Below, piece by piece: positions 1-13,966 of a stretch of DNA of 13,966 bases. The translations under genes and the position numbers were made by a program. The stretch's first letter is position 1, and each line of letters begins with the position of its first letter. Origin of the DNA: a virus; UHGV virus genome UHGV-0038964; one strand, given 5' to 3'. The notes under the pieces were generated by a model. It did not search any database. It was not told where the DNA came from and saw only the letters and a list, made by a program, of their open reading frames with translations.

Positions 1-171
1 CATCATACACTAAATCAGTAAGTTGGCAGCATCACCTACAACGGCATTACCGCTATGCATTGCTCATCTTACACACAGCGCAATGTTGATAGATAACCCC
101 AGCATGGAACATGGGTGAAACAGTAGGTCAGAGCTTCAGGCTCTGTGTTGTCAATACAGTGAGGCATAATT

Positions 172-381
172 ATGGCTTTCATTCCACCAACCATCGACGA
201 TGTTAGACATTGCTCTAACGCTTTATCTGTAGACCCCGCCGAAACCGACGCTGCCCGCGCCATTGCTGAACACTACTCAAAGATATCCAATCAGGAGTAC
301 CGCATCACCCAAGACGACCTGGATGACCTCACTGACACAATCGAATATCTCATGGCCACTAACCAGCCAGACTCACAATAA
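172..381 (+). CDS. coi: Coi-like C1-repressor inactivator (69 aa)
   Basis: ATG at 172 with a GAGG Shine-Dalgarno about 9 nt upstream; small acidic 69-aa protein directly upstream of and co-oriented with the 283-aa c1-like gene. Size and position match the P1 coi-c1 arrangement as I recall it. Confidence 0.6.
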   Translation: MAFIPPTIDDVRHCSNALSVDPAETDAARAIAEHYSKISNQEYRITQDDLDDLTDTIEYLMATNQPDSQ

Positions 382-397
382 ATGCACTAATAAATCT
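381..397 (+). promoter_or_regulatory. C1 operator-like 17-mer (AATGCACTAATAAATCT) between coi and c1
   Basis: 14/17 identity to the P1 C1 operator consensus ATTGCTCTAATAAATTT, read directly; it overlaps the coi stop codon and lies about 95 nt upstream of the c1 start, as expected for an autoregulatory site. Confidence 0.4.
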
Positions 398-426
398 ATT
401 ATTTTCGTTGGATCCTTCTATAATGG

Positions 427-469
427 TGGCCAACAACTCCCAGTGTAATTCGCTGTGAGTTGTTGGCCA
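427..469. repeat. Perfect 13-bp inverted repeat (TGGCCAACAACTC / GAGTTGTTGGCCA) with a 17-nt spacer, just upstream of the c1 ribosome-binding site
   Basis: Read directly: arms at 427-439 and 457-469 are exact reverse complements; the GGAGGAGG Shine-Dalgarno of c1 follows at about 479-486. Confidence 0.5.
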
Positions 470-491
470 TGTCAATTCTGGAGGAGGATCA

Positions 492-1343
492 ATGATAAAT
501 TATGTCTACGGCGAACAACTGTACCAGGAGTTCGTCAGCTTCAGGGATCTCTTTCTAAAAAAAGCTGTTGCACGCGCCCAACACGTTGATGCCGCCAGCG
601 ACGGTCGTCCTGTACGCCCGGTTGTCGTTCTGCCGTTCAAAGAAACGGACAGCATTCAGGCTGAAATTGATAAATGGACTTTAATGGCGCGGGAACTGGA
701 ACAGTACCCAGACCTCAATATCCCAAAGACTATTTTATATCCTGTGCCTAACATCCTTCGCGGTGTGCGTAAGGTTACGACCTATCAGACAGAAGCTGTA
801 AACAGCGTCAACATGACCGCTGGCCGCATTATTCATCTGATTGATAAGGACATTCGCATCCAAAAAAGCGCGGGGTTCAATGAGCACAGTGCGAAATACA
901 TAGAGAACCTGGAAGCAACAAAAGAGCTAATGAAGCAGTACCCGGAGGATGAAAAATTCCGTATGCGCGTACACGGCTTTAGCGAAACAATGCTGCGCGT
1001 TCACTACATCTCCAGTAGTCCTAACTACAATAACGGTAAATCAGTTAGTTACCATGTGCCGCTGTGTGGCGTGTTTATCTGCGATGAAACTCTCCGTGAT
1101 GGAATCATCATCAACGGTGAATTCGAGAAAGCAAAATTTAGCCTTTATGACTCCATAGAACCGATCATCTGCGACCGCTGGCCACAAGCAAAAATATATC
1201 GCCTGGCAGATATTGAAAATGTAAAAAAACAAATTGCCATCACTCGCGAAGAGAAAAAGGTTAAGTCAGCCGCATCAGTTACGCGCAGCCGTAAAACCAA
1301 GAAGGGGCAGCCAGTAAACGACAACCCCGAAAGCGCGCAATAA
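492..1343 (+). CDS. c1: C1-like master repressor of lysogeny (283 aa)
   Basis: ATG at 492 with GGAGGAGG 5 nt upstream; 283 aa with a Lys/Arg-rich C-terminal tail. Length, the coi partner upstream and C1-operator-like sites elsewhere in the window fit P1 C1. The identification rests on recalled length and context, not on an alignment. Confidence 0.7.
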   Translation: MINYVYGEQLYQEFVSFRDLFLKKAVARAQHVDAASDGRPVRPVVVLPFKETDSIQAEIDKWTLMARELEQYPDLNIPKTILYPVPNILRGVRKVTTYQTEAVNSVNMTAGRIIHLIDKDIRIQKSAGFNEHSAKYIENLEATKELMKQYPEDEKFRMRVHGFSETMLRVHYISSSPNYNNGKSVSYHVPLCGVFICDETLRDGIIINGEFEKAKFSLYDSIEPIICDRWPQAKIYRLADIENVKKQIAITREEKKVKSAASVTRSRKTKKGQPVNDNPESAQ

Positions 1344-1346
1344 ATT

Positions 1347-1376
1347 ATGCCCGGCATCAACCGGGCATTCTTCCAT
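1347..1376. terminator. Bidirectional intrinsic terminator between convergent c1 and the HNH-motif gene
   Basis: Stem ATGCCCGG (1347-1354), loop CATCAA, stem CCGGGCAT (1361-1368); T-rich sequence follows on the + strand (TCTTCCATTATT) and on the - strand (AATTTATTG). Confidence 0.6.
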
Positions 1377-2387
1377 TATTCAGCCGCCACCGGTTTTAAC
1401 AAGCCAGCATCGAGCAGTTTACGCGTCAACCACTGCTGGCCTTTACCCGTTAATTGAGGCGTCAACCGTATCTGATAGCCATCTTCATCATCCAGCACCA
1501 CTTCTTTCACCGTGAAATAATCGACTATGACGAACGATATAAGGCGTAATGTGAGCGCCAGCTCCCGCAGCTCCACAGCCACAGCATGGACGGGAAGCCA
1601 CAAAGTCCATGTACTCGGGCAATTTTAGCGATTGAAGTTTTGGTATTTTGAAATGCGCCATACCTGGGTCGGAGTCAACATCCACAGGGCATACTTTTGC
1701 ACGCATCGGCGCGGCGCGTTCTTCCATCATTTGAACATATGCTGTAGCGCGATCGTCATACGGGCGAATATCCGCCTCTTTCAGAGGTCCGCTATCCTGC
1801 GGAGTAGCCTTCATCTTATTTATTGATATGCGGCAGACTTCTTCCGGCATCAGGTGCATCATGTTGCGCATGAAAGCCCACCAGCACAGCTCCTGAATAC
1901 TTAAATCATGGCTATTTGAAAGGCCCATTTCCTGACGGGCGACATCCAGTATCCAGTTAACGCGATTATTGTGCAGCGTTTCTTTCAGCTCATTAAAACC
2001 ACGCATCCGGTAATGGTTATCGTGATGCCAGCACAACAACACCGCGCTATTGTCTCGTTCTGCGTGGACAATATGGTTGTCACACCAACTACGATCTGCG
2101 GCCTGGCATTGACCCTCTTTCCTACGCAACCACGCCACCAGCGCGTCAATTCCACCAATACGGCGAAACAGTTCATCGCTGTTAAAAAACGGCTGCAACG
2201 CCTCATTTGTTGCCATGGTTTGCTCCGTAACAACGAGGCCGTCTTCCATGTGCTCGATTAACTCACGCGGCACCGGCTCCATAATAAATTTACGGCCAGC
2301 CTCCACCAGCTTTCGGACCTCCTGATCCACTTTGAACGTGGCGAGGCCAAGCTCTTTCTGTACAAAGGGAGTAATTACGGCTTTCAC
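1376..2387 (-). CDS. HNH-motif protein (DUF968-like guess) with an apparent frameshift; main frame 1488-2387, C-terminal segment continues in another frame at 1376-1603
   Basis: GTG start at 2387 with AAGGTG 5 nt upstream. Internal motif CDNHIVH...N...LLCWHHDNH resembles an HNH/zinc-finger nuclease core. The last 35 residues of the 299-aa frame are low-complexity ([14 protein letters not shown]...), while the overlapping frame encodes a protein-like 75-aa tail. Confidence 0.5.
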
Positions 2388-2414
2388 ATCACACCTTTAA
2401 TCACTGATTGGGCT

Positions 2415-2594
2415 TTATCTGCTGCCCGGCATTATCTGTTTAAGCACAACCATTTCCTGACGGCATAACACAGCAATAGCAGTCCTGGCTCCAATTTGCT
2501 TACCAACCAGGTATTGCTTTACCTCGCGGCGACTCACGCCATCAAGAAGCATCTTTAACGCTTCACGGGACAATTTGTTGTATTTGCGTGCCAT
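2415..2594 (-). CDS. Small basic protein (59 aa), possible helix-turn-helix; post-doc gene
   Basis: ATG at 2592-2594, four nt after the doc stop codon (2599-2601); Lys/Arg-rich. The track ORF 2415-2615 begins further upstream inside doc, so I trimmed it to the first ATG after doc. Confidence 0.4.
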   Translation of the reverse strand: MARKYNKLSREALKMLLDGVSRREVKQYLVGKQIGARTAIAVLCRQEMVVLKQIMPGSR

Positions 2595-2598
2595 TAAT

Positions 2599-2979
2599 CT
2601 ACTCCGCAGAACCATACAATCTACGTAACGTGGCGGCGACAGAAGATACAGATATCTCGCCAGTCGCAGCGCCTACAGTAAGGTCTGCCAGTTCAGGTGA
2701 ATCAAATACCTGCACCCCGTTACGGCGTAGAAATAGCAGCGCACTGTTTAGCGCGGTACGCTTATTGGCATCATTGAATATATGCCCTCTCGCTGTAGCC
2801 ACCAGGTAGGTGGCGGAGACTTCGAAAAGGTCGGTGATCTCTTCGTAGGCAACTCTGGCCTGAACTCTCCCGATAATGGCCTCTGCCCTACCCGGATCTG
2901 ACATTCCCGGCAGGCCGCCGTAGCGGCTTATATTCGCATCATGAAGCGCAATAAGTTCTTCCGGTGATATATGCCTCAT
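2599..2979 (-). CDS. doc: Doc toxin (Fic-fold kinase, death-on-curing), 126 aa
   Basis: Protein [22 protein letters not shown]... with the Fic/Doc motif [11 protein letters not shown]; matches P1 Doc as I recall it. Its ATG overlaps the phd stop (TAATG). Confidence 0.9.
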
Positions 2980-3200
2980 TATCGGTTAACCAGTTCCTTG
3001 TTGGTGGAGTCCAGGGTGTCAAACAGGGATGCAAATTCAGCATCCAGCGCCGCTTTTTTGTAGGCTTCGAAAGTAGCCTTGCTGACAATTACTGCTGGCT
3101 CACGGCCTCTGCGGGTGATTTCAACCTCTTCCCCGGCTTCAACATTGTTGAGCACTTCAGAAAGGTTGCCGCGCGCGGTACGGAAGTTAATGGATTGCAT
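2979..3200 (-). CDS. phd: Phd antitoxin (Phd/YefM family), 73 aa
   Basis: [41 protein letters not shown]... matches P1 Phd as I recall it; true ATG at 3198-3200 with GAGGTG upstream. The track start at 3206 is a GTG two codons earlier. Confidence 0.9.
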
Positions 3201-3206
3201 AAACAC

Positions 3207-3233
3207 CTCGTGTACTCGTTATGTGTACACAAT
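3207..3233. promoter_or_regulatory. Putative Phd/Doc autoregulatory operator (GTGTAC core at 3210-3215 and palindrome TGTGTACACA at 3222-3231)
   Basis: Two GTGTAC-containing sites immediately upstream of the phd start, one a perfect 10-bp palindrome. Phd is known to autoregulate at palindromic sites in its promoter; the exact site sequence is not recalled. Confidence 0.35.
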
Positions 3234-3272
3234 TATAAACTTCACAGGCATAAAGCACCAGCACTTTGCAGC

Positions 3273-3662
3273 TTAAATCACCGGACAGTCATCAAATTCC
3301 CCACTTCGGGCATCATTGATGACATGAGTGATCACACCAAAAACAGCATTACTACCCGTGTAACCATCGTCATCTACTGGTAACGCCTCTTTCTTCCCGG
3401 TGCTTAAATCCTCCAGGTGCTGGCGCGGATACTTTCGGTATCTCTTTATGCGATATTCACCCTCCATAGCGCAGACAAGCAGCGAACCATCAACCGGAGT
3501 AAGCGAGGAATCAACCACCAGCAAAGCACCCTGCAATATTCCCTCACGGTGATGGCTGTCTGCCGCCCGCATGAAGTATGTCGCTGATGGATGCCTGATT
3601 AGTTGCTGATCAAGAGAAATTCTGCTTTCAACATAATCCGCCGCAGGAGAAGGGAAGCCCAT
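3273..3662 (-). CDS. humD: HumD, UmuD'-like polymerase V accessory subunit homologue (LexA/S24 peptidase fold), 129 aa
   Basis: ATG at 3660-3662 with GAGGTGA upstream; UmuD'-like sequence; gene order humD-phd-doc as in P1; LexA box immediately upstream. Confidence 0.8.
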   Translation of the reverse strand: MGFPSPAADYVESRISLDQQLIRHPSATYFMRAADSHHREGILQGALLVVDSSLTPVDGSLLVCAMEGEYRIKRYRKYPRQHLEDLSTGKKEALPVDDDGYTGSNAVFGVITHVINDARSGEFDDCPVI

Positions 3663-3681
3663 AGCGTTTTCACCTCAACAA

Positions 3682-3701
3682 TACTGTTTATTTATACAGT
3701 A
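3682..3701. promoter_or_regulatory. LexA (SOS) box TACTGTTTATTTATACAGTA
   Basis: CTGT at 3684-3687 and ACAG at 3696-3699 with an 8-nt AT-rich spacer; a perfect CTGT-N8-ACAG palindrome about 20 nt upstream of the humD ATG, in the divergent region shared with the + strand gene at 3837. Confidence 0.75.
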
Positions 3702-3836
3702 TACATTAAAGAGACACCTTTGGTGCAAACGCGTTATGTACATCAACCACCGCAGATGATTTTGTGCGCTTTGCTACTATTCATCACCAACGGATCAGCG
3801 TAACCTCGTTGCCAATCAGTTAATAAGGAATTAGCT

Positions 3837-4412
3837 ATGCCTAATCGCATTCCTCTCGATCCTGTATTGCCCAAAAATTTTGACTGCACTCCTAACGAGA
3901 AACGCTCTAAAGCTCAGCTGGACGCCTGGTGGGATCATCCGTATGGAGTTACACAATCTGACGGGAAAATTGTTGTTTTTTGTCTAAACGGTGGCGCGTG
4001 GGACCGTCCATCCATGCTTTGTTTGGCAGATAACTATGATGACGCCTGTGAACTTGCAGAAAGAAAGCAGGCAAGCTGGGTAAAAACACGGTCTAAACCG
4101 TCATTCATGTTTTCAATAGAACCGCCATTTATCCTAGCAAGGATGCCGCAGCGACCAGACCAGGAACAGCAAGAGATTGTTGCCGAATTTGATTCAAGGG
4201 AAGAAATGAACCTCTTCACGATGAAACAGGAACAAGAAGAGAATCTTGGAGTTTCACCATTTTTGGATCACAAGAGTATGAACCTCGACCTGCTTATCTG
4301 GTACAGCAATGAGCTTGAGTTATCGCTGTCCCGGCTTGAAAAAGAAAAAGCAGCTATCCAGGCACAACGTGAAGCTGTGTTGGCGCGGATTAAAGAAGTA
4401 CAGAACGGATGA
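3837..4412 (+). CDS. Hypothetical protein (191 aa) with a coiled-coil C-terminus; divergent from humD
   Basis: ATG at 3837 with AAGGAA 7 nt upstream; no overlapping competitor ORF; the C-terminal 60 aa are heptad-like (LELSLSRLEKEKAAIQAQREAVLARIKE). Function unknown. Confidence 0.55.
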   Translation: MPNRIPLDPVLPKNFDCTPNEKRSKAQLDAWWDHPYGVTQSDGKIVVFCLNGGAWDRPSMLCLADNYDDACELAERKQASWVKTRSKPSFMFSIEPPFILARMPQRPDQEQQEIVAEFDSREEMNLFTMKQEQEENLGVSPFLDHKSMNLDLLIWYSNELELSLSRLEKEKAAIQAQREAVLARIKEVQNG

Positions 4413-4418
4413 TTGCTG

Positions 4419-4682
4419 TTATTTTTTGATGGTATCGTCTTTTTGGTATACCGGATCGCTTCCCTTTGGCAACTGGAGGCTTAACTGCCGGTAGTGCCGT
4501 AGACGTTCCATGAAATAGGTGCGCAGGTTCTCTGGTTGCTCGCGGGCTACCTGTTCAGCTATGACAGGTATGTTCAATCGCTCTTTGTAGGCAACCCCCC
4601 TAGCAGCCAGGTCAACGTTAACTTTATTCCTTTCTTCCTGGCTTTTAGCTGCTATGTTCCATTCGTTCATATTAAATCCCAT
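4419..4682 (-). CDS. hot: Hot, homologue of DNA polymerase III theta subunit (HolE-like)
   Basis: The stretch [42 protein letters not shown] resembles E. coli theta ([42 protein letters not shown], recalled). Start is either the ATG at 4682 or the ATG at 4670. Confidence 0.7.
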
Positions 4683-5138
4683 CCAGAATAATTGAATAAC
4701 GGCTATTATTTAGTCGCCGCAATATCTTCAAAGTTTTTTTCTCACCCCATTGCTTTTTGCGCACAGCTTATCTGGCTTGCGGTGCGCCGAAATGTAAATT
4801 CGCCTTCAGAGTTATCCACAAAGTTATGCACTTGCAACGAGGCCATTTTCCTCATACTGTGTTTGCACACACAGGAAATGGATATTTTATTAATTGAATT
4901 TTATTAAATAATAATGATAAGGAGAAAATTTGAGATGTAATCATGACATTAATAGATAGGGCCTGCATTACAGGCCCCAACTACATCAAGGAATTCACAG
5001 TTCCCTGATTTTTATACCGAAAACATGTGCCGTAAGTTCACGTTAACGACTTTCTTTCACCGAATCCAACTATATAGAGGTTGGGTTTCTACGTCAACGT
5101 GAGAGCACACAGCTTTACATTTGACGAGGATTACCCTG

Positions 5139-5276
5139 ATGATTGTAATTTTTCAGTTTCTAAGTGCATTTTTAAATGCGCCTGTTCTTAGCCAAGTGCT
5201 GGCGATTGTCTTCATCGTGGTTCTGATATGGTTTTTCAAGTCAGTGATAAACAGAGGCGTGCGCTGGCTTATTTAA
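5139..5276 (+). CDS. Unannotated small hydrophobic protein (45 aa): MIVIFQFLSAFLNAPVLSQVLAIVFIVVLIWFFKSVINRGVRWLI
   Basis: Below the ORF-track size cutoff. ATG at 5139 with GAGGA about 8 nt upstream, TAA at 5274-5276; a single long hydrophobic segment with a basic C-terminus. It lies in a region otherwise free of coding sequence. Confidence 0.4.
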   Translation: MIVIFQFLSAFLNAPVLSQVLAIVFIVVLIWFFKSVINRGVRWLI

Positions 5277-5459
5277 TGTCGCGCTGAGATATTAATTCCC
5301 TTGCTGTTTAACCATTTTTTGTGTGTGCTGGTGAGCGTGTGAAGGCTCAATTTGTTGCCCACCAGTATTTACTATTTCTAAGCTCCACAGTGTCACTTCC
5401 GCACAAACAACTTAGCGCGGAATCAGTATTCGGCCCAAGATGTAAAAAGCCAACCTGCG

Positions 5460-5726
5460 TTATGGTTCGCATTTCCAAATAGTGTTCTGAACGCCCGTGC
5501 CGGGCGCGAGATGTGGATTAGCGTTCGCGCTATGCTGATATACGGCTTTAGACTTTCCATATTGCTGACAGGCTTTATCTGCGGTTTTTTGCAGGCTATC
5601 CAGCCCATACCAGCCATCAGACTGGATGCTTACCTTTTCACCGTCATTGTATTGCACCATTGCACACCCGGACATAGCCAGCATCGCACCGACAATAACG
5701 CTTTTCCATAAAACTCTATGCAACAT
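5460..5726 (-). CDS. Small lipoprotein (about 88 aa)
   Basis: Signal peptide MLHRVLWKSVIVGAMLAMSGC with a lipobox-like MSGC cysteine; the true start is probably the ATG at 5724-5726 (the track start at 5732 is a TTG). Confidence 0.55.
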   Translation of the reverse strand: MLHRVLWKSVIVGAMLAMSGCAMVQYNDGEKVSIQSDGWYGLDSLQKTADKACQQYGKSKAVYQHSANANPHLAPGTGVQNTIWKCEP

Positions 5727-5731
5727 ATACA

Positions 5732-5761
5732 AAAATCCCCTCTGTGAATTGAGGGGATTTT
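5732..5761 (-). terminator. Intrinsic terminator ending the upstream minus-strand operon
   Basis: Stem 5732-5742 pairs with 5751-5761 (AAAATCCCCTC / GAGGGGATTTT); on the - strand the stem runs into TTTTTGTAT. The same stem supplies the GAGGGG Shine-Dalgarno of the lipoprotein gene. Confidence 0.6.
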
Positions 5762-5795
5762 AGCATGGTGATCAGATATCAGCTTTATCAGGAAT

Positions 5796-6545
5796 TTAAT
5801 CAGCCTCCAGTGGCAATAACGCCTTAGCCATTTCATGAACCAACATGGCATCAATGACGCCTAGCGTATGGCCCGGCTTAATCTTTAATGCGGCCTCAAG
5901 ATAGCCTCTTTCCAGAGTGGTTTTTACGCTTTTCCTGGGCGCCTGTTGGGAACTATCCGGAAGATCCGGATGGTTCCCAGCCTCATAAGCTATCCGCAAC
6001 CAGTGCATGAATGTTTCCGCAGACACACAACCGCAGTCCACATCGATTTTCCCGCGTTGCTGTTCCAGCCATTGCCCAAAATCCAACCTGTAAGCCTTAC
6101 TTTCAAGTTCATCGCCATTGAACTCGACTTTCTGCGACGCTATGAGAGCTGATTCGTATTGTTCGCGAGTGACAACTGACTGGTATTCATCGCTATCAAG
6201 ATCACCAATTGGAAGCTCAATCTCACAACAAAAATTGCGCCCAAAGAACGTGTCTTTTTTGTGGTCTGAGCCAAAAGCAAAAGTCGCGCATGGCGCCATT
6301 AAATTGGCACTGAGCAGGCGACAATCGATCATACCATCAGGCCACCCGCCGCACTTAGGCAGCTCCTTCACTAACAAGTCGATAAGCTTCATTTTTTTAT
6401 CATCTTTGCTAGTTGCTAACGCCATTTTTGCAAGTCCAAATACTTCATCTGCCGTATATCCAGCACCGTGACCATACATTTCGATACGGGAAATAATCTC
6501 TGATATACGCTCTTTAGTGATTCTGGTCATTTCTTTTTGCGCCAT
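5796..6545 (-). CDS. Hypothetical protein (249 aa), last gene of the operator-gated operon
   Basis: ATG at 6543-6545; long ORF with no recognisable motif; followed by the terminator at 5732-5761. Confidence 0.5.
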   Translation of the reverse strand: MAQKEMTRITKERISEIISRIEMYGHGAGYTADEVFGLAKMALATSKDDKKMKLIDLLVKELPKCGGWPDGMIDCRLLSANLMAPCATFAFGSDHKKDTFFGRNFCCEIELPIGDLDSDEYQSVVTREQYESALIASQKVEFNGDELESKAYRLDFGQWLEQQRGKIDVDCGCVSAETFMHWLRIAYEAGNHPDLPDSSQQAPRKSVKTTLERGYLEAALKIKPGHTLGVIDAMLVHEMAKALLPLEAD

Positions 6546-6901
6546 TTCTTTTCACATTCCTTAGTCCATTTTTCAATGTTCATTTTGGCAATATCAGTCA
6601 TTCCATCGCCTAAGAAATACCTTTCCCGGTATGTCTTGCACTTAAACCACACTACAATAGCCACCAGCCAGAAAATAAAAGGCCAGACAGCAATACCAAC
6701 TACAGCCACGATAAAGTCCAATAGACACAAATGAAGCTCCCCTACTTCTGTTTCAGGCAATATCTTTAAAGAGTTAAACAGCAGACTGAACGAATGGTCG
6801 TATGCAGTAGCGCTATAAGACATACAATCCATATAATTAAAATCATAGCCTGCGGCTGCCGCCCATAATGGGCAGTCAAGAAAATGTTTGAATGTCATCA
6901 T
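6527..6901 (-). CDS. Hypothetical membrane protein (124 aa), Lys-rich C-terminus
   Basis: Tandem ATG ATG at 6896-6901; hydrophobic stretch LCLLDFIVAVVGIAVWPFIFWLVAIVVWF; 3' end overlaps the start of the 249-aa gene by 19 nt. Confidence 0.5.
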   Translation of the reverse strand: MMTFKHFLDCPLWAAAAGYDFNYMDCMSYSATAYDHSFSLLFNSLKILPETEVGELHLCLLDFIVAVVGIAVWPFIFWLVAIVVWFKCKTYRERYFLGDGMTDIAKMNIEKWTKECEKKWRKKK

Positions 6902-6967
6902 ATAAATTTAATCAGTTACACAGTGTGGCTGCTTCCCTGCCGTAACAGCAGGGTAATAAAGTTATAA

Positions 6968-7132
6968 TCAGTCTCCAGATAGAGATATAGCTAACGCACC
7001 AACGAGGAATAAGGTGCTACCAGCCAATGCACCGCAGCTCTCCGTTCCCCATTCAACGCCACCAGCCAAAGCCACAAAAAAACCACAAACACAGACAAAT
7101 ATAAACGTCGCCCAAAACTGTTTCTTTTTCAT
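6968..7132 (-). CDS. Unannotated small membrane protein (54 aa): MKKKQFWATFIFVCVCGFFVALAGGVEWGTESCGALAGSTLFLVGALAISLSGD
   Basis: Found by hand translation. Its ATG (7130-7132) overlaps the TAA stop of the upstream 97-aa gene (TAATG coupling); GGAG upstream; two hydrophobic segments. Confidence 0.45.
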   Translation of the reverse strand: MKKKQFWATFIFVCVCGFFVALAGGVEWGTESCGALAGSTLFLVGALAISLSGD

Positions 7133-7425
7133 TATGGGGTGCTCCAGTTATCTTCAATTACAATGCTCAACCTTTGTAGCCATTCTGCTAATTTCAGCAT
7201 TGCTTCTCTTTCGCTTAAACCACGCGGGAAATCATCAAGCGATATTGTTGGCTTGAAGTTCCCGAAATTATCCATTTCAACTGTCAGATTTTGCTCTAAC
7301 ACGGTATTCCTGACACGGCTATTGTGCCGAAGCAAATATACTGATCGTGATTCATTAGTTTTGTGGTCGAATTGATATTCGGTAAGTATCATCTGGCTTT
7401 TGCCATGACTATTACCTCTCCACAT
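7132..7425 (-). CDS. Hypothetical protein (about 97 aa)
   Basis: Track ORF 7132-7512 trimmed to the ATG at 7423-7425 (MWRGNSHGK...), which has a GAGG Shine-Dalgarno; the upstream part of the track ORF is instead taken by the 40-aa peptide in another frame. Confidence 0.45.
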   Translation of the reverse strand: MWRGNSHGKSQMILTEYQFDHKTNESRSVYLLRHNSRVRNTVLEQNLTVEMDNFGNFKPTISLDDFPRGLSEREAMLKLAEWLQRLSIVIEDNWSTP

Positions 7426-7432
7426 ACTTACC

Positions 7433-7555
7433 TCACTTAATAAAACAACTCCATGCGTAGTTGATGATTTTTTCCCACGCAATATAAATCTGCACTCCAG
7501 CAGTAAAACCAAAGCCTACAATTGCTGAAAAAATCAAAACATTTACTTTTGACAT
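7433..7555 (-). CDS. Unannotated small hydrophobic peptide (40 aa): MSKVNVLIFSAIVGFGFTAGVQIYIAWEKIINYAWSCFIK
   Basis: ATG at 7553-7555, TGA at 7433-7435; single transmembrane-like segment; ends 8 nt before the 97-aa gene start. The Shine-Dalgarno is weak. Confidence 0.35.
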   Translation of the reverse strand: MSKVNVLIFSAIVGFGFTAGVQIYIAWEKIINYAWSCFIK

Positions 7556-7603
7556 TATAAAATTTCTCTCGGTGTCGTAGGTGATAGCACCATAATTGAT
7601 AAT

Positions 7604-7936
7604 TTAGTGAGTTAGCAGCTTCATTTTTTTGATGATTTCCGCATGAGCATCATCGTTATCAACACTTAGCTCGTTTAATGCTTCTCGCACTACATCAACT
7701 TCTTCAGGCTGAAAGAAGTCGTCGCGGTAATCACCAAATAGAACCGAAACCAGCCTGGCACCAGCAACATCAAGATTAGCGCTAACAGGTGGCTCGATAT
7801 CTCGCCCACAATTCCAGGCTTTTTGGGCTTCTTCCAGCGTGTAAACATGAGCGCGATCGATATCAGAGCTGTAACCATTGCCGTTATGGCAATGGAATGA
7901 AGCGTTATTACCCACAGTTTCACGCGAGCACATCAT
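7604..7936 (-). CDS. Hypothetical acidic protein (about 110 aa)
   Basis: The track ORF begins at a TTG (7978) overlapping the upstream gene; the first ATG pair at 7931-7936 lies just after that gene's stop, so the start is placed there. Confidence 0.45.
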   Translation of the reverse strand: MMCSRETVGNNASFHCHNGNGYSSDIDRAHVYTLEEAQKAWNCGRDIEPPVSANLDVAGARLVSVLFGDYRDDFFQPEEVDVVREALNELSVDNDDAHAEIIKKMKLLTH

Positions 7937-7946
7937 GTAAAAACGG

Positions 7947-8528
7947 TTACTCACTGGTTGCCCCCTGAATACGCTCAAACTCGATTACCCAAACCCAGGG
8001 ATTAGCGTTCCAACTTTCTTCGCCATAAATTGATTCCCATAGGCTACGGAAACCTGGGTAATGCTTATCGCCAATGAGGGTAAATTCTGTTGGTGCGCCC
8101 TCAGCCCTTGCATCGCATTCGCTGATATCGTTCAACCGCTCAACGCGCACGTTGGTAATTTCCAGCAAAATGCGCGATGCCCAGCGCGGCATGTGAATTG
8201 ATGGCGTCCACTTTTCTGATACTGGCTTATTACAAACCTCAACCGGAACCCGGTGCGTTTGTTCTGTCCAGGAGTTACGCACGCTTGCGCGATAAACCAG
8301 CGTTGCGACGTCCGTCGCTTTGCCATGTACCCGGTAGGTTTCACGAACCCAAATACGATCTCCCGGTTGACCATATGGACAATGTTTAGCAAGCAACTCT
8401 GCGGCCACTGCCCGTCCATAGAATTTTTCTTCAACAATCCTGCGAGTCTGTGTTTTATTCCCGCCAAGAATTGCCCGGACCATCTCATCGTTGAAAATCA
8501 TGCCGCGCTCTTTCACTTCGCCTTTCAT
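7947..8528 (-). CDS. Hypothetical protein (193 aa), tentatively ASCH-like (N-terminal MIFNDEMVRAILGGNKTQTRR)
   Basis: ATG at 8526-8528 with AAGGGGGA upstream. The GxKT.TRR segment resembles the conserved ASCH/PUA-like motif; this is recalled pattern, not an alignment. Confidence 0.5.
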   Translation of the reverse strand: MKGEVKERGMIFNDEMVRAILGGNKTQTRRIVEEKFYGRAVAAELLAKHCPYGQPGDRIWVRETYRVHGKATDVATLVYRASVRNSWTEQTHRVPVEVCNKPVSEKWTPSIHMPRWASRILLEITNVRVERLNDISECDARAEGAPTEFTLIGDKHYPGFRSLWESIYGEESWNANPWVWVIEFERIQGATSE

Positions 8529-8537
8529 GCATCCCCC

Positions 8538-8624
8538 TTACCCATGCGCGACAATGCCGCCAAAAGTGATAGAGAACAGCCAGAAATAGATCGCGGCCAT
8601 AATGATTTTGAATGCCGTGTTCAT
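8538..8624 (-). CDS. Unannotated small hydrophobic peptide (28 aa): MNTAFKIIMAAIYFWLFSITFGGIVAHG
   Basis: ATG at 8622-8624 with AGGAG about 8 nt upstream; TAA at 8538-8540, overlapping the Shine-Dalgarno of the 193-aa gene; first ORF downstream of the C1-operator-like site. Confidence 0.35.
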   Translation of the reverse strand: MNTAFKIIMAAIYFWLFSITFGGIVAHG

Positions 8625-8652
8625 ATTTTCAGCTCCTGTGATTGATTGGATA

Positions 8653-8683
8653 CATGCCGCGCCTTGCGGCATGTTTTTATTTT
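8653..8683 (+). terminator. GC-rich palindromic hairpin (CATGCCGC-gcctt-GCGGCATG) followed by TTTTTATTTT on the + strand
   Basis: Read directly. On the + strand it has the form of an intrinsic terminator, although no convincing + strand gene precedes it; on the - strand it sits in the 5' leader of the operon, between the predicted promoter and the 28-aa ORF. Confidence 0.45.
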
Positions 8684-8706
8684 CACTTTCTCTGTTTTAA
8701 AAATCA

Positions 8707-8723
8707 ATATTTATTAGAGCAAT
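8707..8723 (-). promoter_or_regulatory. C1 operator-like 17-mer (minus-strand reading ATTGCTCTAATAAATAT) with promoter-like elements just downstream
   Basis: 16/17 match to the C1 consensus ATTGCTCTAATAAATTT. On the - strand it is followed by TTGATT, a 17-nt spacer and GAAAAT, a plausible -35/-10 pair for the operon at 5796-8624. Confidence 0.55.
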
Positions 8724-9166
8724 TATTGTTGATGGAGAAGCGCGTTTTCATACTCCCTGACCATTAACGTAAGCACGCCGTGCCTCCTGAAAACACGCGC
8801 CACTTCAATCTTATCTTCCAGCGCGAACGCGATTTTACTTAGACCAATTTTCTTAAGGAGATCAATCTTTGCTGGGCCGTCATTTCTGTCATCGGTGGCA
8901 GGACGCATAGATAGCAAAGGCTCAGCCCCGTTTGTTACGTACTTCCGCAGCCAGGCTCGTGTTTTATCCCTTGCGATCTCACAGCGCCCGGTTACAAACC
9001 AGACCGTGTAAACGTTAAATAACTGGCGCACAATATCAATAACTGGAGTTATGGGAGTATCAGTGTCACAGGCGAGATTAAACTCGTTCCAGTCCTTTGT
9101 TAATGCACCTTTACCTGGTGGCGGAAGCAAATGCAGTCTGTCTTCAGTTGCCTCTGATATTGTTCC
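8723..9166 (-). pseudogene. 3' portion of a HAD-superfamily (DxDGT) phosphatase gene split by the IS3-family element
   Basis: The reading frame is open from the insertion junction at 9166 to the stop at 8723. Joined to the opposite flank it reads ...PYIVIVDIDGTISEATEDR...VWFVTGR...DKTR...ATDDRNDG, the HAD motif order, resembling the phosphatase domain of polynucleotide kinase-phosphatase. Confidence 0.6.
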
Positions 9167-9184
9167 TGAATCGCCACAGATAAT

Positions 9185-10090
9185 CTAGACACTTCCGAGC
9201 CGCTGATAATATTGTTTTTCGTATTCAGTTGGTGGCATATGATCACTCGAACCATGCCGACGCTTACTGTTATAAAACATTTCGATGTAATCAAAAATAT
9301 CACCGCGAGCTTCTTCTCGCGTTCCGTAGATCTTTTTCTTTATCCGTTCACGTTTCAGTAACTGGAAAAAACTTTCTGCGACTGCGTTGTCATGACAGTT
9401 ACCGCGACGGCTCATACTGCCCTCCAGCCCGTGTGATTTCAGGAACGACTGCCACTCATAGCTTGTGTACTGACTGCCTTGATCAGAATGAACCAGCACC
9501 TGCTTTTGAGGATTACGTCGCCACACGGCCATCAGAAGTGCATTCAGGACAATATCCTTTGTCATCCGGGGCTGCATTGACCAGCCAATAACTTTGCGCG
9601 AGAACAGGTCAACAACCACAGCCAGATACAGCCAGCCTTCGTGAGTCCGGATGTAGGTGATGTCCGTTACCCAACGCTCATCCGGTGCTTCCGGGTTGAA
9701 CTGCCGCTGGAGCCTGTTGGGCGTCACGATGCTGGTTTCACCCTTACGTGCCCGTGGGCTACGGTACCCGACCTGAGCCCTTATCCCGGCACGCTTCATC
9801 AGTCGCCAGACACGGTTAACTCCGCACTGTTGTCCGGTATCCCGCAGGTCGAGGTGGATCTTGCGATAACCATAAACGCAACCCGACTCCAGCCAGAACT
9901 GCTTTATCAGCCCCGTCAGTCTCAGGTCAGCATGATGCCGCCGTGAATCCGGCTGCTGAAGCTAGGCGTAAAAACCACTCGGATGCACATCCAGCACCCG
10001 ACAAAGCAGTCGGACAGGCCAGCAATGGGTGTTGTCACGGATAAAGGCGTACCTCAGTCGGACAGCTTTGCGAAGTACGCCGCGGCTTTT
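9185..10090 (-). pseudogene. IS3-family transposase orfB (DDE catalytic domain), interrupted by an in-frame TAG
   Basis: The orfB frame is open from the slippery site (about 10090) and reads ...LLCRVLDVHPSGFYA, then TAG at 9962-9964, then LQQPDSRRHHADLRLTGLIKQFWLESGCVYGYRKIHLDLRD... continuing into the track ORF 9185-9799. Confidence 0.7.
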
Positions 10091-10332
10091 TTTAATATGT
10101 CCCGTTCGTCGGTAACCCGCTTCAGCTCTTTCTGGAGGCGTCGGATCTCAGCCTGAGCGTCTGACTGGACTTTATTGGTTGAGGAATCCGGGCCATATGC
10201 CTTTATCCAGGCATAAAGACTGTGGGTGGTGATACCGAGACGTGTTGCCACGCTGGAAACAGAATGGCCGCGATCAACAACCTGTTTTACCGCTTCAATT
10301 TTAAACTCTTCGGGATAACGCTTACCGCTCAT
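10054..10332 (-). CDS. IS3-family transposase orfA (helix-turn-helix / leucine-zipper part)
   Basis: ATG at 10330-10332 with GAGAGG upstream (the track start at 10338 is a GTG); ends ...DILKKAAAYFAKLSD. The ATATTAAAAAAAGCC slippery heptanucleotide at 10085-10099 marks the -1 frameshift into orfB. Confidence 0.8.
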   Translation of the reverse strand: MSGKRYPEEFKIEAVKQVVDRGHSVSSVATRLGITTHSLYAWIKAYGPDSSTNKVQSDAQAEIRRLQKELKRVTDERDILKKAAAYFAKLSD

Positions 10333-10392
10333 GGGCACCTCTCTTTAAGTCATCTTAAATGACTCTGAGGTGTCTGTTAAACCCGTGGCGAT

Positions 10393-10461
10393 TCATCCAT
10401 CAATATCAACTATGACGATATACGGACGTTCCTGGTGTGCGTGTTTATTGAAAATACTCAA
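10393..10461 (-). pseudogene. 5' portion of the same HAD phosphatase gene (LSIFNKHAHQERPYIVIVDIDG), cut off by the IS
   Basis: In frame with the 3' portion once the IS and one TCC copy are removed. The only candidate start is the TTG at 10459-10461, with GGAGGG 4 nt upstream; the IS terminal TGA now supplies the stop. Confidence 0.45.
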
Positions 10462-13814: not shown

Positions 13815-13966
13815 ACGACGGAAGCACAGAACGCCGTCTCTGACCTCACGTTCTTTAACATCGGGTAACCTTTTTTCTGCCCTTCAGCCTTCATTTTCCC
13901 GGCGGTTGCTTTTGAACGTTTCCCTCTGAAGTGGTTTACTGAATTTGGCCACCTGAACAGAGGTGA

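Follow-up and report, generated by a model that had tools for sequence, protein, structure and literature searches.

The stretch of DNA analysed here (the window, all 13,966 nucleotides of it, from virus genome UHGV-0038964) very probably belongs to a P1-derived plasmid that can no longer act as a phage because of one deletion of 4,946 bp. IS ends border the window, and 68% of it aligns to P1 at 95.3% identity, collinear with the P1 order. In the annotation of reference P1 (NC_005856) this order is c1, pacB, pacA, lpa, pdcB, pdcA, doc, phd, humD, lxr and hot, the same series that a preliminary description of the window had given. Reference P1 does not have the c1-pdcB adjacency of the window. 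One aligned block (window 37-1342, 97.2% identity) comprises imcA'-imcB-coi-c1, and another (1517-5333) starts within pdcB and covers pdcA, doc, phd, humD, lxr and hot. Missing between them are 3.5 kb of P1, which contain pacB, pacA and lpa as well as 173 nt at the 3' end of pdcB. The absence of packaging and late-activator genes between c1 and doc, to which the preliminary description had drawn attention, is thus confirmed by alignment, and also by tblastn searches in which PacA, PacB and Lpa of P1 found no match within the window. Gene order and orientation are the same as in P1 on either side of the gap, with 97% identity in immC, 92% from pdcB to hot, and 98-100% for the C1, Coi, Phd, Doc and HumD proteins. 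However, P1 carries pacB, pacA, lpa and a complete pdcB, all wanting in the window, and its c1 is directly convergent with pacB with no ant module at this place. A second deletion in the window has removed pmgP', pmgO, pmgN and pmgM'. The features discussed below are collected in Table 1.

Table 1. Features on the two sides of the deletion junction, in window coordinates.
Feature	Position	Strand	Basis or remark
IS1 terminal 36 nt	1..36	.	adjoins imcA; matches IS1 ends in two compared loci (L003 and L004)
coi, C1 repressor inactivator, intact	172..381	+	69/69 aa identical to P1 Coi
C1 operator match, Oc1a position	381..397	+	upstream of c1; corresponds to P1 Oc1ab
c1, primary repressor of lytic functions, intact	492..1343	+	280/283 aa identical to P1 C1.100
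terminator-like hairpin, bidirectional, between convergent c1 and ant	1347..1368	.	GC-rich stem, folding energy
ant 3' remnant, KilAC-domain antirepressor	1376..1519	-	last 47 codons + stop
deletion junction	1517..1519	.	3-bp microhomology ATA; base-by-base comparison with pLH85-a-A
truncated pdcB (DUF968), PdcB aa 1-290/347 + 9 out-of-frame codons	1488..2387	-	tblastn, 99.3% identity over aa 1-290
pdcA, 66 aa in P1 annotation, 59 aa from RefSeq downstream start	2415..2615	-	64/66 aa identical to P1 PdcA
doc, addiction toxin	2599..2979	-	125/126 aa identical to P1 Doc
phd, addiction antitoxin	2979..3200	-	73/73 aa identical to P1 Phd
humD, UmuD' homologue	3273..3662	-	128/129 aa identical to P1 HumD

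The nearest intact layout is that of plasmid pLH85-a-A, where c1 converges on a series of oppositely oriented elements in the order ant, icd, C4 RNA, pacB, pacA, lpa and pdcB. The window has this layout minus a single stretch of 4,946 bp. Its positions 37-1519 correspond to 501-1983 of the pLH85-a-A locus (L005), contiguously and with 98.9% identity, and its positions 1517-4000 correspond to 6930-9413 of the same locus. The junction fuses the 47th codon from the end of ant to codon 290 of pdcB, and base-by-base comparison revealed no IS and no repeat at the breakpoint. What is left of the locus is c1, the hairpin, 144 nt of ant, the truncated pdcB, and then pdcA, doc, phd and humD.

Adjacency of c1 and ant is a common arrangement, found in 345 of 705 P1-related plasmids in PLSDB, and insertion of ant between pacB and c1 has been described for pTZ20_1P and RCS47 (PMC6906374). 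Phage-plasmids of the RCS47/pTZ20_1P/pLH85-a-A type share with the window an extra antirepressor module between c1 and pacB, from which the window retains the c1 stop, the hairpin and the last 144 nt of ant, whereas they keep C4 RNA, icd, full ant, pacB, pacA, lpa and full pdcB, none of which the window has. In the pLH85-a-A module, C4 RNA (75.9 bits) and isrK-like RNAs were detected. The ant remnant corresponds to the C-terminus of the pLH85-a-A Ant protein (351 aa when full), shares 90% identity with the 3' end of P1 ant1/2, and matches Pfam ANT (PF03374) at profile positions 69-106 of 108, so that the ANT/KilAC domain is incomplete. We considered whether the 174 bases at 1343-1516 that have no counterpart in P1 are novel DNA, and rejected this, as the c1/ant hairpin and the 3' end of ant, of which they consist, both belong to a common P1-like layout. 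The hairpin itself (ATGCCCGG-CATCAA-CCGGGCAT; -18.3 kcal/mol, z = -2.3) has a GC-rich stem of 8-9 bp, depending on which of two tools is used. The preliminary description had noted here a clean convergent terminator (1347-1376) joining the two genes after doc to c1; the hairpin is real, but the junction did not create it. Layouts with ant next to c1 normally have this hairpin between the two genes, and the window inherited it: it lies within the block that is contiguous with pLH85-a-A, where it stands between intact c1 and ant.

On the other side of the junction, the preliminary description had counted two genes between doc and c1. One of these, encoding a 59-aa basic protein, is pdcA, as in P1. 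The other, described as a single HNH-motif ORF at 1376-2387, is P1's own pdcB in truncated form, overlapped by the C-terminus of Ant in another frame, and is thus not one ORF. PdcB aa 1-290 are coded at 1518-2387 and are followed by nine foreign codons to a stop at 1488. The match to the DUF968 profile spans positions 1-114 of 171, versus 1-171 for P1 PdcB, and the C-terminal Cys/His motif is gone; the truncated gene is probably a pseudogene. That 1376-2387 might be a diverged lpa or pac homologue, an outcome the preliminary description had itself allowed for, was rejected, since the interval holds PdcB aa 1-290 and the Ant remnant.

The immunity genes coi and c1 are intact. Homology to P1 begins at window position 37, equivalent to position 264 of the P1 locus and located within imcA. 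The P1coi promoter and the Oc1d operator, which lie upstream, are cut off from imcB-coi-c1 by the IS1 end, and in plasmid pYLPD4b an IS1A transposase lies directly upstream of the corresponding region. The C1 operator consensus has four matches in the window, compared with 0.05 expected by chance. Plasmids identical at this locus carry c1 under the label 'phage repressor protein C1'.

Together these observations make the following history very probable. The ancestor had a common P1-like layout, with a second immI-type module (C4 antisense RNA, icd and ant) between c1 and pacB. A single deletion by illegitimate recombination, joined at the ATA microhomology, then took the 5' 912 nt of ant with icd and the C4 RNA, pacB, pacA and the pac site that pacA contains, lpa together with the operator and promoter through which C1 controls it, and the last 57 codons of pdcB. 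In the P1 annotation the pac site is placed within pacA, lpa and its Olpa operator fall within the deleted interval, and LPpac is annotated as well. Lpa is needed for the late promoters of P1, which serve heads, tails, lysis and pac, to fire. If P1 genetics applies here, loss of Lpa would leave the late promoters silent, and loss of PacA, PacB and the pac site would mean that the DNA is neither cut nor packaged, even in the presence of a helper phage. Loss of the adjacent antirepressor may in addition have removed one route of induction. The retained genes, including an undamaged c1 that has its own promoter and operators, a coi whose coding sequence is intact, phd-doc for addiction, and humD, would allow the element to persist as a repressed, addictive plasmid.

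Thirteen complete plasmids, with hosts among E. coli, E. albertii, E. fergusonii, Shigella and Salmonella, have the same junction at 100% identity. Minus one IS, the window is 99.9-100% identical to sequences in 10 plasmids of PLSDB and in 10 complete-genome records of E. coli, two lists that overlap. No match to the exact deletion junction was found in GTDB species representatives or JGI metagenome contigs. An extra feature of the window's own copy is an ISEhe3-like insertion in pap, the junction of which gave no match in PLSDB, the complete genomes of E. coli or the GTDB representatives.

Two junction carriers, pYLPD4b and pEcQE11-421-2, were searched in full. They retain 30% and 78% of P1, respectively. 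The preliminary description had proposed looking for pacA, pacB and lpa elsewhere in the replicon, and on these two near-identical complete carriers the search returned nothing: PacA, PacB and Lpa have no match anywhere in either plasmid (tblastn, E <= 1e-3), and no terminase is annotated in them. For the rest of the window's own replicon we infer the same absence from these relatives, because the window covers 14 kb and the whole replicon is in none of the searched collections. The virion and lysis genes of P1 belong outside the 14 kb of the window. Plasmid pYLPD4b lacks most of them; about 70% of P1 is gone from it, and portal, protease, lysis, baseplate, immI, kilA/repL and ban are among the losses. 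Most P1 structural genes are still present in pEcQE11-421-2, in which the tail-fibre gene next to an IS26 is shortened (coverage of P1 S is 51% and of cin 6%) and the expected position of sit is occupied by an IS1 transposase gene. A RepB-family initiator, ParA/ParB and Cre are annotated in both plasmids, and phd-doc is intact in the window. Cargo in the carriers includes a class 1 integron with dfrA17-aadA5, sul2, tet(A), oqxAB, MobI and a TraI fragment; dfrA17-aadA5, sul2, MobI and the TraI fragment are found in pYLPD4b.

It is highly improbable that the packaging and late-activator genes were relocated within the replicon by inversion or transposition, leaving a functional phage-plasmid with a rearranged map. 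IS-mediated inversion is known to move segments of P1, as it did with tub-lpa in pTZ20_1P (PMC6906374), and the window, with IS ends at its borders, represents only part of its replicon. However, the clean deletion with 3-bp microhomology and an IS-free breakpoint speaks against such movement, and the two complete plasmids with the identical junction do not have the genes anywhere else. Moreover, the deleted DNA also spans half of ant and the 3' end of pdcB, which fits loss and not the transfer of a functional module. Still less credible is an assembly artefact, in which a collapsed or chimeric contig would have created the c1-pdcB adjacency. Nothing specific speaks for this beyond the general susceptibility of IS-rich plasmids to misassembly, whereas the junction recurs in independently sequenced complete plasmids of five species and in the E. 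coli complete-genome records, and has no repeat that could produce a collapse.

The preliminary description offered both a defective derivative and a different or reduced packaging module. The former is supported by the simple deletion relative to an intact relative and by the complete carriers that have no PacA, PacB or Lpa; nothing speaks for a replacement module, and neither of the two carriers has an annotated terminase. It is correspondingly very unlikely that the element is packaged by a system non-homologous to that of P1, or as a satellite by a helper P1-like phage in the same cell. A helper P1 would find no specific site to cut, because the pac site lay inside the deleted pacA, and P1 biology predicts that the structural genes remaining in pEcQE11-421-2, which might otherwise favor such an arrangement, could not be expressed from late promoters without Lpa. 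One observation in its favor concerns phi456, a P1-like record without pac and lpa for which tiny plaques and myovirus particles were reported (PMC10967188). Taken at face value, plaque formation by phi456 would contradict our conclusion that packaging is lost. However, phi456 also lacks gp5, 6, 7, 24, 25, 26 and ban, and the reported particles may therefore come from another prophage. The phi456 gene annotated as 'terminase small subunit', between repA and parA, was rejected as a packaging gene, as it matches only Pfam T5orf172 and its RefSeq plasmid counterpart is a 'GIY-YIG nuclease family protein'.

A plasmid-locked derivative of P1 is an element of a known kind, since decayed P1 plasmids have already been described. 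P1-like phage-plasmids become plasmids through gene loss (Pfeifer & Rocha 2024, PMC10879196), and Dataset S7 of that work includes three carriers of the junction (NZ_CP030285, NZ_CP036204 and NZ_CP048823), each classed there as a 'Plasmid' with a relationship to P1g1. The plasmids treated there resemble the present element in having a P1 subgroup-1 backbone from which key phage functions are missing, and IS-mediated resistance cargo, sometimes with mobilisation genes, as in pYLPD4b. In the portions of that paper considered here, however, depletion is given by functional category, and this locus, its breakpoints and the pac-lpa-ant deletion do not appear; the window's insertion in pap is a further difference. 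Among P1 derivatives with lost lytic functions is pJIE250-3 (Venturini et al. 2019, PMC6906374), likewise a P1-like plasmid that kept maintenance and immunity and lost lytic modules. The losses differ: the C-segment, tail, immI and lytic replication region (RD-3) in pJIE250-3, and ant-icd-pacBA-lpa next to c1 in the window.

The importance of the present case is slight and mostly a matter of bookkeeping. It provides a base-resolved example of a phage-plasmid locked as a plasmid once the late activator, the pacase and its pac site, and the adjacent antirepressor module had gone, in a deletion allele that circulates at 100% identity in resistance plasmids of five enterobacterial species. Such elements should not be annotated as intact P1-like phages. 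PCR typing schemes take pacA or pdcB as P1 markers (PMC9603915); typing based on pacA will miss this lineage, and a pdcB assay could be affected, depending on primer positions.

At least four deletion alleles lack the ant-icd-pacBA-lpa block, namely the window type, pEF-3, the pCD74-2-1 type and an IS1-mediated allele in phi456. Three different left breakpoints occur among them, and a span of about 220 bp near the 3' end of ant contains all three. In two of the alleles, which are about 3.5% apart over the 500 bp flanking the junction, the left breakpoint is identical, which is located at the foot of a 13-bp palindrome, TTTCAC-N-GTGAAA. Between the window and the pEF-3 allele, which share this breakpoint, the SNP pattern is that of a divergent patch (1001-1511) abutting the junction. 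This patch favors, without being decisive, an independent origin or mosaicism rather than descent from pEF-3. Occurrence of the window-type allele in a plasmid that retains 78% of P1 suggests that the deletion can precede wider decay. It is nevertheless rather unlikely that loss of this block is a recurrent, selected or hotspot-driven early step to plasmid-only life in P1-like phage-plasmids with ant next to c1, although clustered independent breakpoints may be a small lead on how phage-plasmids decay. Another plasmid, pTB31P2, resembles a further rearrangement variant.

The gene order given for P1 in the preliminary description is correct and agrees exactly with the annotation of NC_005856 (c1, pacB, pacA, lpa, pdcB, pdcA, doc, phd, humD, lxr, hot), in which pacA contains the pac cleavage site and lpa is preceded by a C1-controlled operator and promoter. 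The reported placement of the immunity genes directly beside the doc/phd/humD block is likewise real. In alignments, window positions 37-1342 correspond to P1 imcA'-imcB-coi-c1 (97.2%) and positions 1517-5333 to P1 from inside pdcB to hot (91.8%), and the 3.5-kb P1 segment between these blocks is absent from the window. When P1 proteins were used as tblastn queries against the window, PacA, PacB and Lpa gave no match, and PdcB (aa 1-290 of 347), PdcA, Doc, Phd and HumD were recovered at 97-100% identity. C1 is the same as that of P1 at 280/283 residues and Coi at 69/69.

Neither P1 nor SJ46 contains a match to positions 1343-1516, but numerous P1-like plasmids do, and about 130 nt of the stretch resembles the 3′ end of P1 ant1/ant2 (90% identity). 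An intact version of the locus is found in pLH85-a-A (NZ_CP100487), arranged as c1 > < ant (KilAC, 351 aa) < icd < pacB < pacA < lpa < pdcB < pdcA < doc < phd. Window 37-1519 aligns with positions 501-1983 of this locus and window 1517-4000 with positions 6930-9413. Relative to pLH85-a-A, the window therefore carries one 4,946-bp deletion, joined at the 3-bp microhomology ATA. The ORF at 1376-2387, previously read as one gene, actually consists of those 290 residues of PdcB and, in a different frame, the Ant C-terminus; the C-terminal Cys/His motif of PdcB is gone. The hairpin at 1347-1368 is intergenic, lying between the stop codons of c1 and ant, and is older than the deletion, because this intergenic stretch aligns contiguously to pLH85-a-A.

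Gene remnants at the deletion junction
Feature	Part retained	Frame or continuation	Profile match
Truncated PdcB	aa 1-290	9 foreign codons to stop at 1488	DUF968 profile positions 1-114 of 171
Ant remnant	last 47 codons	frame other than that of PdcB	

Upstream of icd in the pLH85-a-A locus (L005:3168-3358) are a C4 antisense RNA (75.9 bits) and an isrK-like RNA (60.8 bits), and the insert between c1 and pacB in this plasmid amounts to a second immI-type module. Elements with this insert thus appear to carry two immI-type antirepressor control modules. The same insertion was described in pTZ20_1P and RCS47 by Venturini et al. (PMC6906374), and c1-ant adjacency occurs in 345 of 705 P1-related plasmids in PLSDB.

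Loss of the packaging and late-activator genes could reflect either a different or reduced packaging module or a defective derivative, and complete relatives of the element bear on this choice. Thirteen complete plasmids share the junction at 99.9-100% identity; their source species are E. coli, E. albertii, E. fergusonii, Shigella flexneri and Salmonella enterica. Two carriers, pYLPD4b and pEcQE11-421-2, were inspected in full, and PacA, PacB and Lpa are absent from the whole of both (84 and 115 kb, respectively). In the closest relatives at least, the pac and lpa genes have therefore been lost and not relocated, which supports a defective derivative and not an alternative packaging module. 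Just 30% of P1 DNA is left in pYLPD4b: portal, protease, lysis, tail-fibre, baseplate, immI, kilA/repL, dmt, ban and gp5-26 are missing. The plasmid also contains a class 1 integron, sul2 and an autotransporter, along with IS elements and MobI/TraI fragments. pEcQE11-421-2 (NZ_CP048823.1) has the identical IS1-flanked junction and the same pac-lpa deletion, and retains 78% of P1, with the majority of the head, tail, lysis and replication genes; an IS26 adjoins its tail-fibre gene, which is shortened (P1 S 51% covered), an IS1 transposase gene stands where the sit annotation is expected, and there is a large resistance region. This plasmid may represent an early stage of a decay series.

Escherichia phage phi456 (OR339795.1) was deposited and described in print as a myovirus that is induced spontaneously and forms plaques (PMC10967188). 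Its record lacks pacA, pacB, lpa, gp5/6/7/24/25/26, ban and dmt, contains many IS elements, and shows an IS1-mediated deletion that reaches from ant into pdcB. Its gene labeled "terminase small subunit" is the repA-parA intergenic gene, whose pYLPD4b homologue matches only Pfam T5orf172. The reported particles may belong to another prophage.

Pfeifer and Rocha (PMC10879196) demonstrated the conversion of P1-like phage-plasmids into plasmids by gene loss, often with gains of resistance and mobilisation genes, and their Dataset S7 classes the junction carriers NZ_CP030285, NZ_CP036204 and NZ_CP048823, as well as several pCD74-2-1-type plasmids, as P1-like "Plasmid". Venturini et al. (PMC6906374) likewise described P1 derivatives that lack lytic functions. 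Because such derivatives are described in both studies, the element in the window is of a known kind, and the sole addition made here is the anatomy of the deletion at base level.

At least three other deletion alleles also remove the ant-pac-lpa block, among them that of phi456. The pEF-3 deletion has the same left breakpoint (locus position 1983), but on the right it ends 401 bp further upstream, so that pdcB is complete and the 5′ end of lpa survives. In the pCD74-2-1 type (~22 plasmids), what remains after two deletions is 74 bp of pacB and the 5′ end of lpa. Left breakpoints at 1983, 2137 and 2202 of the pLH85-a-A locus cluster in the ant 3′ end, and comparison of the pEF-3 site (L015:2890-2950) with window 1489-1549 places the shared one at the foot of the palindrome TTTCAC-N-GTGAAA, directly following it. 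Outside a patch at 1001-1511 adjoining the junction, the window and pEF-3 are almost identical; despite the same left breakpoint, their flanks differ by ~3.5% over the adjacent 500 bp. It is thus possible that the palindrome site is a deletion hotspot, and this recurrent, clustered loss is a modest residual lead. Another c1-proximal rearrangement, in pTB31P2 (NZ_CP070953.1), truncates the ant remnant near position 2253 of the pLH85-a-A locus; ~1.4 kb of unannotated DNA follows, with a 1,194-bp gene of pacA length further on.

In P1, late promoters need Lpa, and PacA/PacB cut at the pac site. Joint loss of Lpa, PacA/PacB and the pac site would be expected to shut down late gene expression and to prevent packaging, even with a helper, and loss of the neighboring antirepressor module would remove one induction route. 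The window keeps intact c1 with its own promoter, four C1 operator matches and phd-doc, and the element is therefore expected to be maintained as a repressed, addictive plasmid.

Further changes lie outside the junction. An IS1 end at 1-36 adjoins imcA (P1 locus position 264) and cuts off imcB-coi-c1 from the P1coi promoter and Oc1d operator upstream; this IS1-imcA junction recurs in the plasmids with the identical deletion junction, also in pEcQE11-421-2, which is otherwise nearly complete. A 1,229-bp IS3-family element (9167-10395), 99% identical to one annotated ISEhe3 in Shigella phage SfIV, lies within pap (HAD_PNKP phosphatase) and is flanked by a clean 3-bp target duplication, TCC, at 9164-9166 and 10396-10398. 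Without this element, the window is 99.9-100% identical in 10 PLSDB plasmids and 10 E. coli complete-genome records, lists that overlap. The insertion junction of the element had no match among plasmids (PLSDB), E. coli complete genomes or GTDB representatives, and the insertion is thus private to the source of the window. A second deletion relative to P1 (~1.2 kb, at 13862-13867) takes out pmgO, pmgN and the Oppp operator together with the 5′ end of pmgP and the greater part of pmgM. Further downstream, positions 13927-13966 no longer match P1, and the ORF that follows in pYLPD4b presumably resembles IS911 OrfA. Separately, positions 4360-8437 form a variable region (the upfM-O and pmgT-V area) that has no P1 match, matches Salmonella phage SJ46 at 93-96%, encodes hypothetical proteins without a Pfam match, and corresponds to variable region "RD-5" of Venturini et al. 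(PMC6906374).
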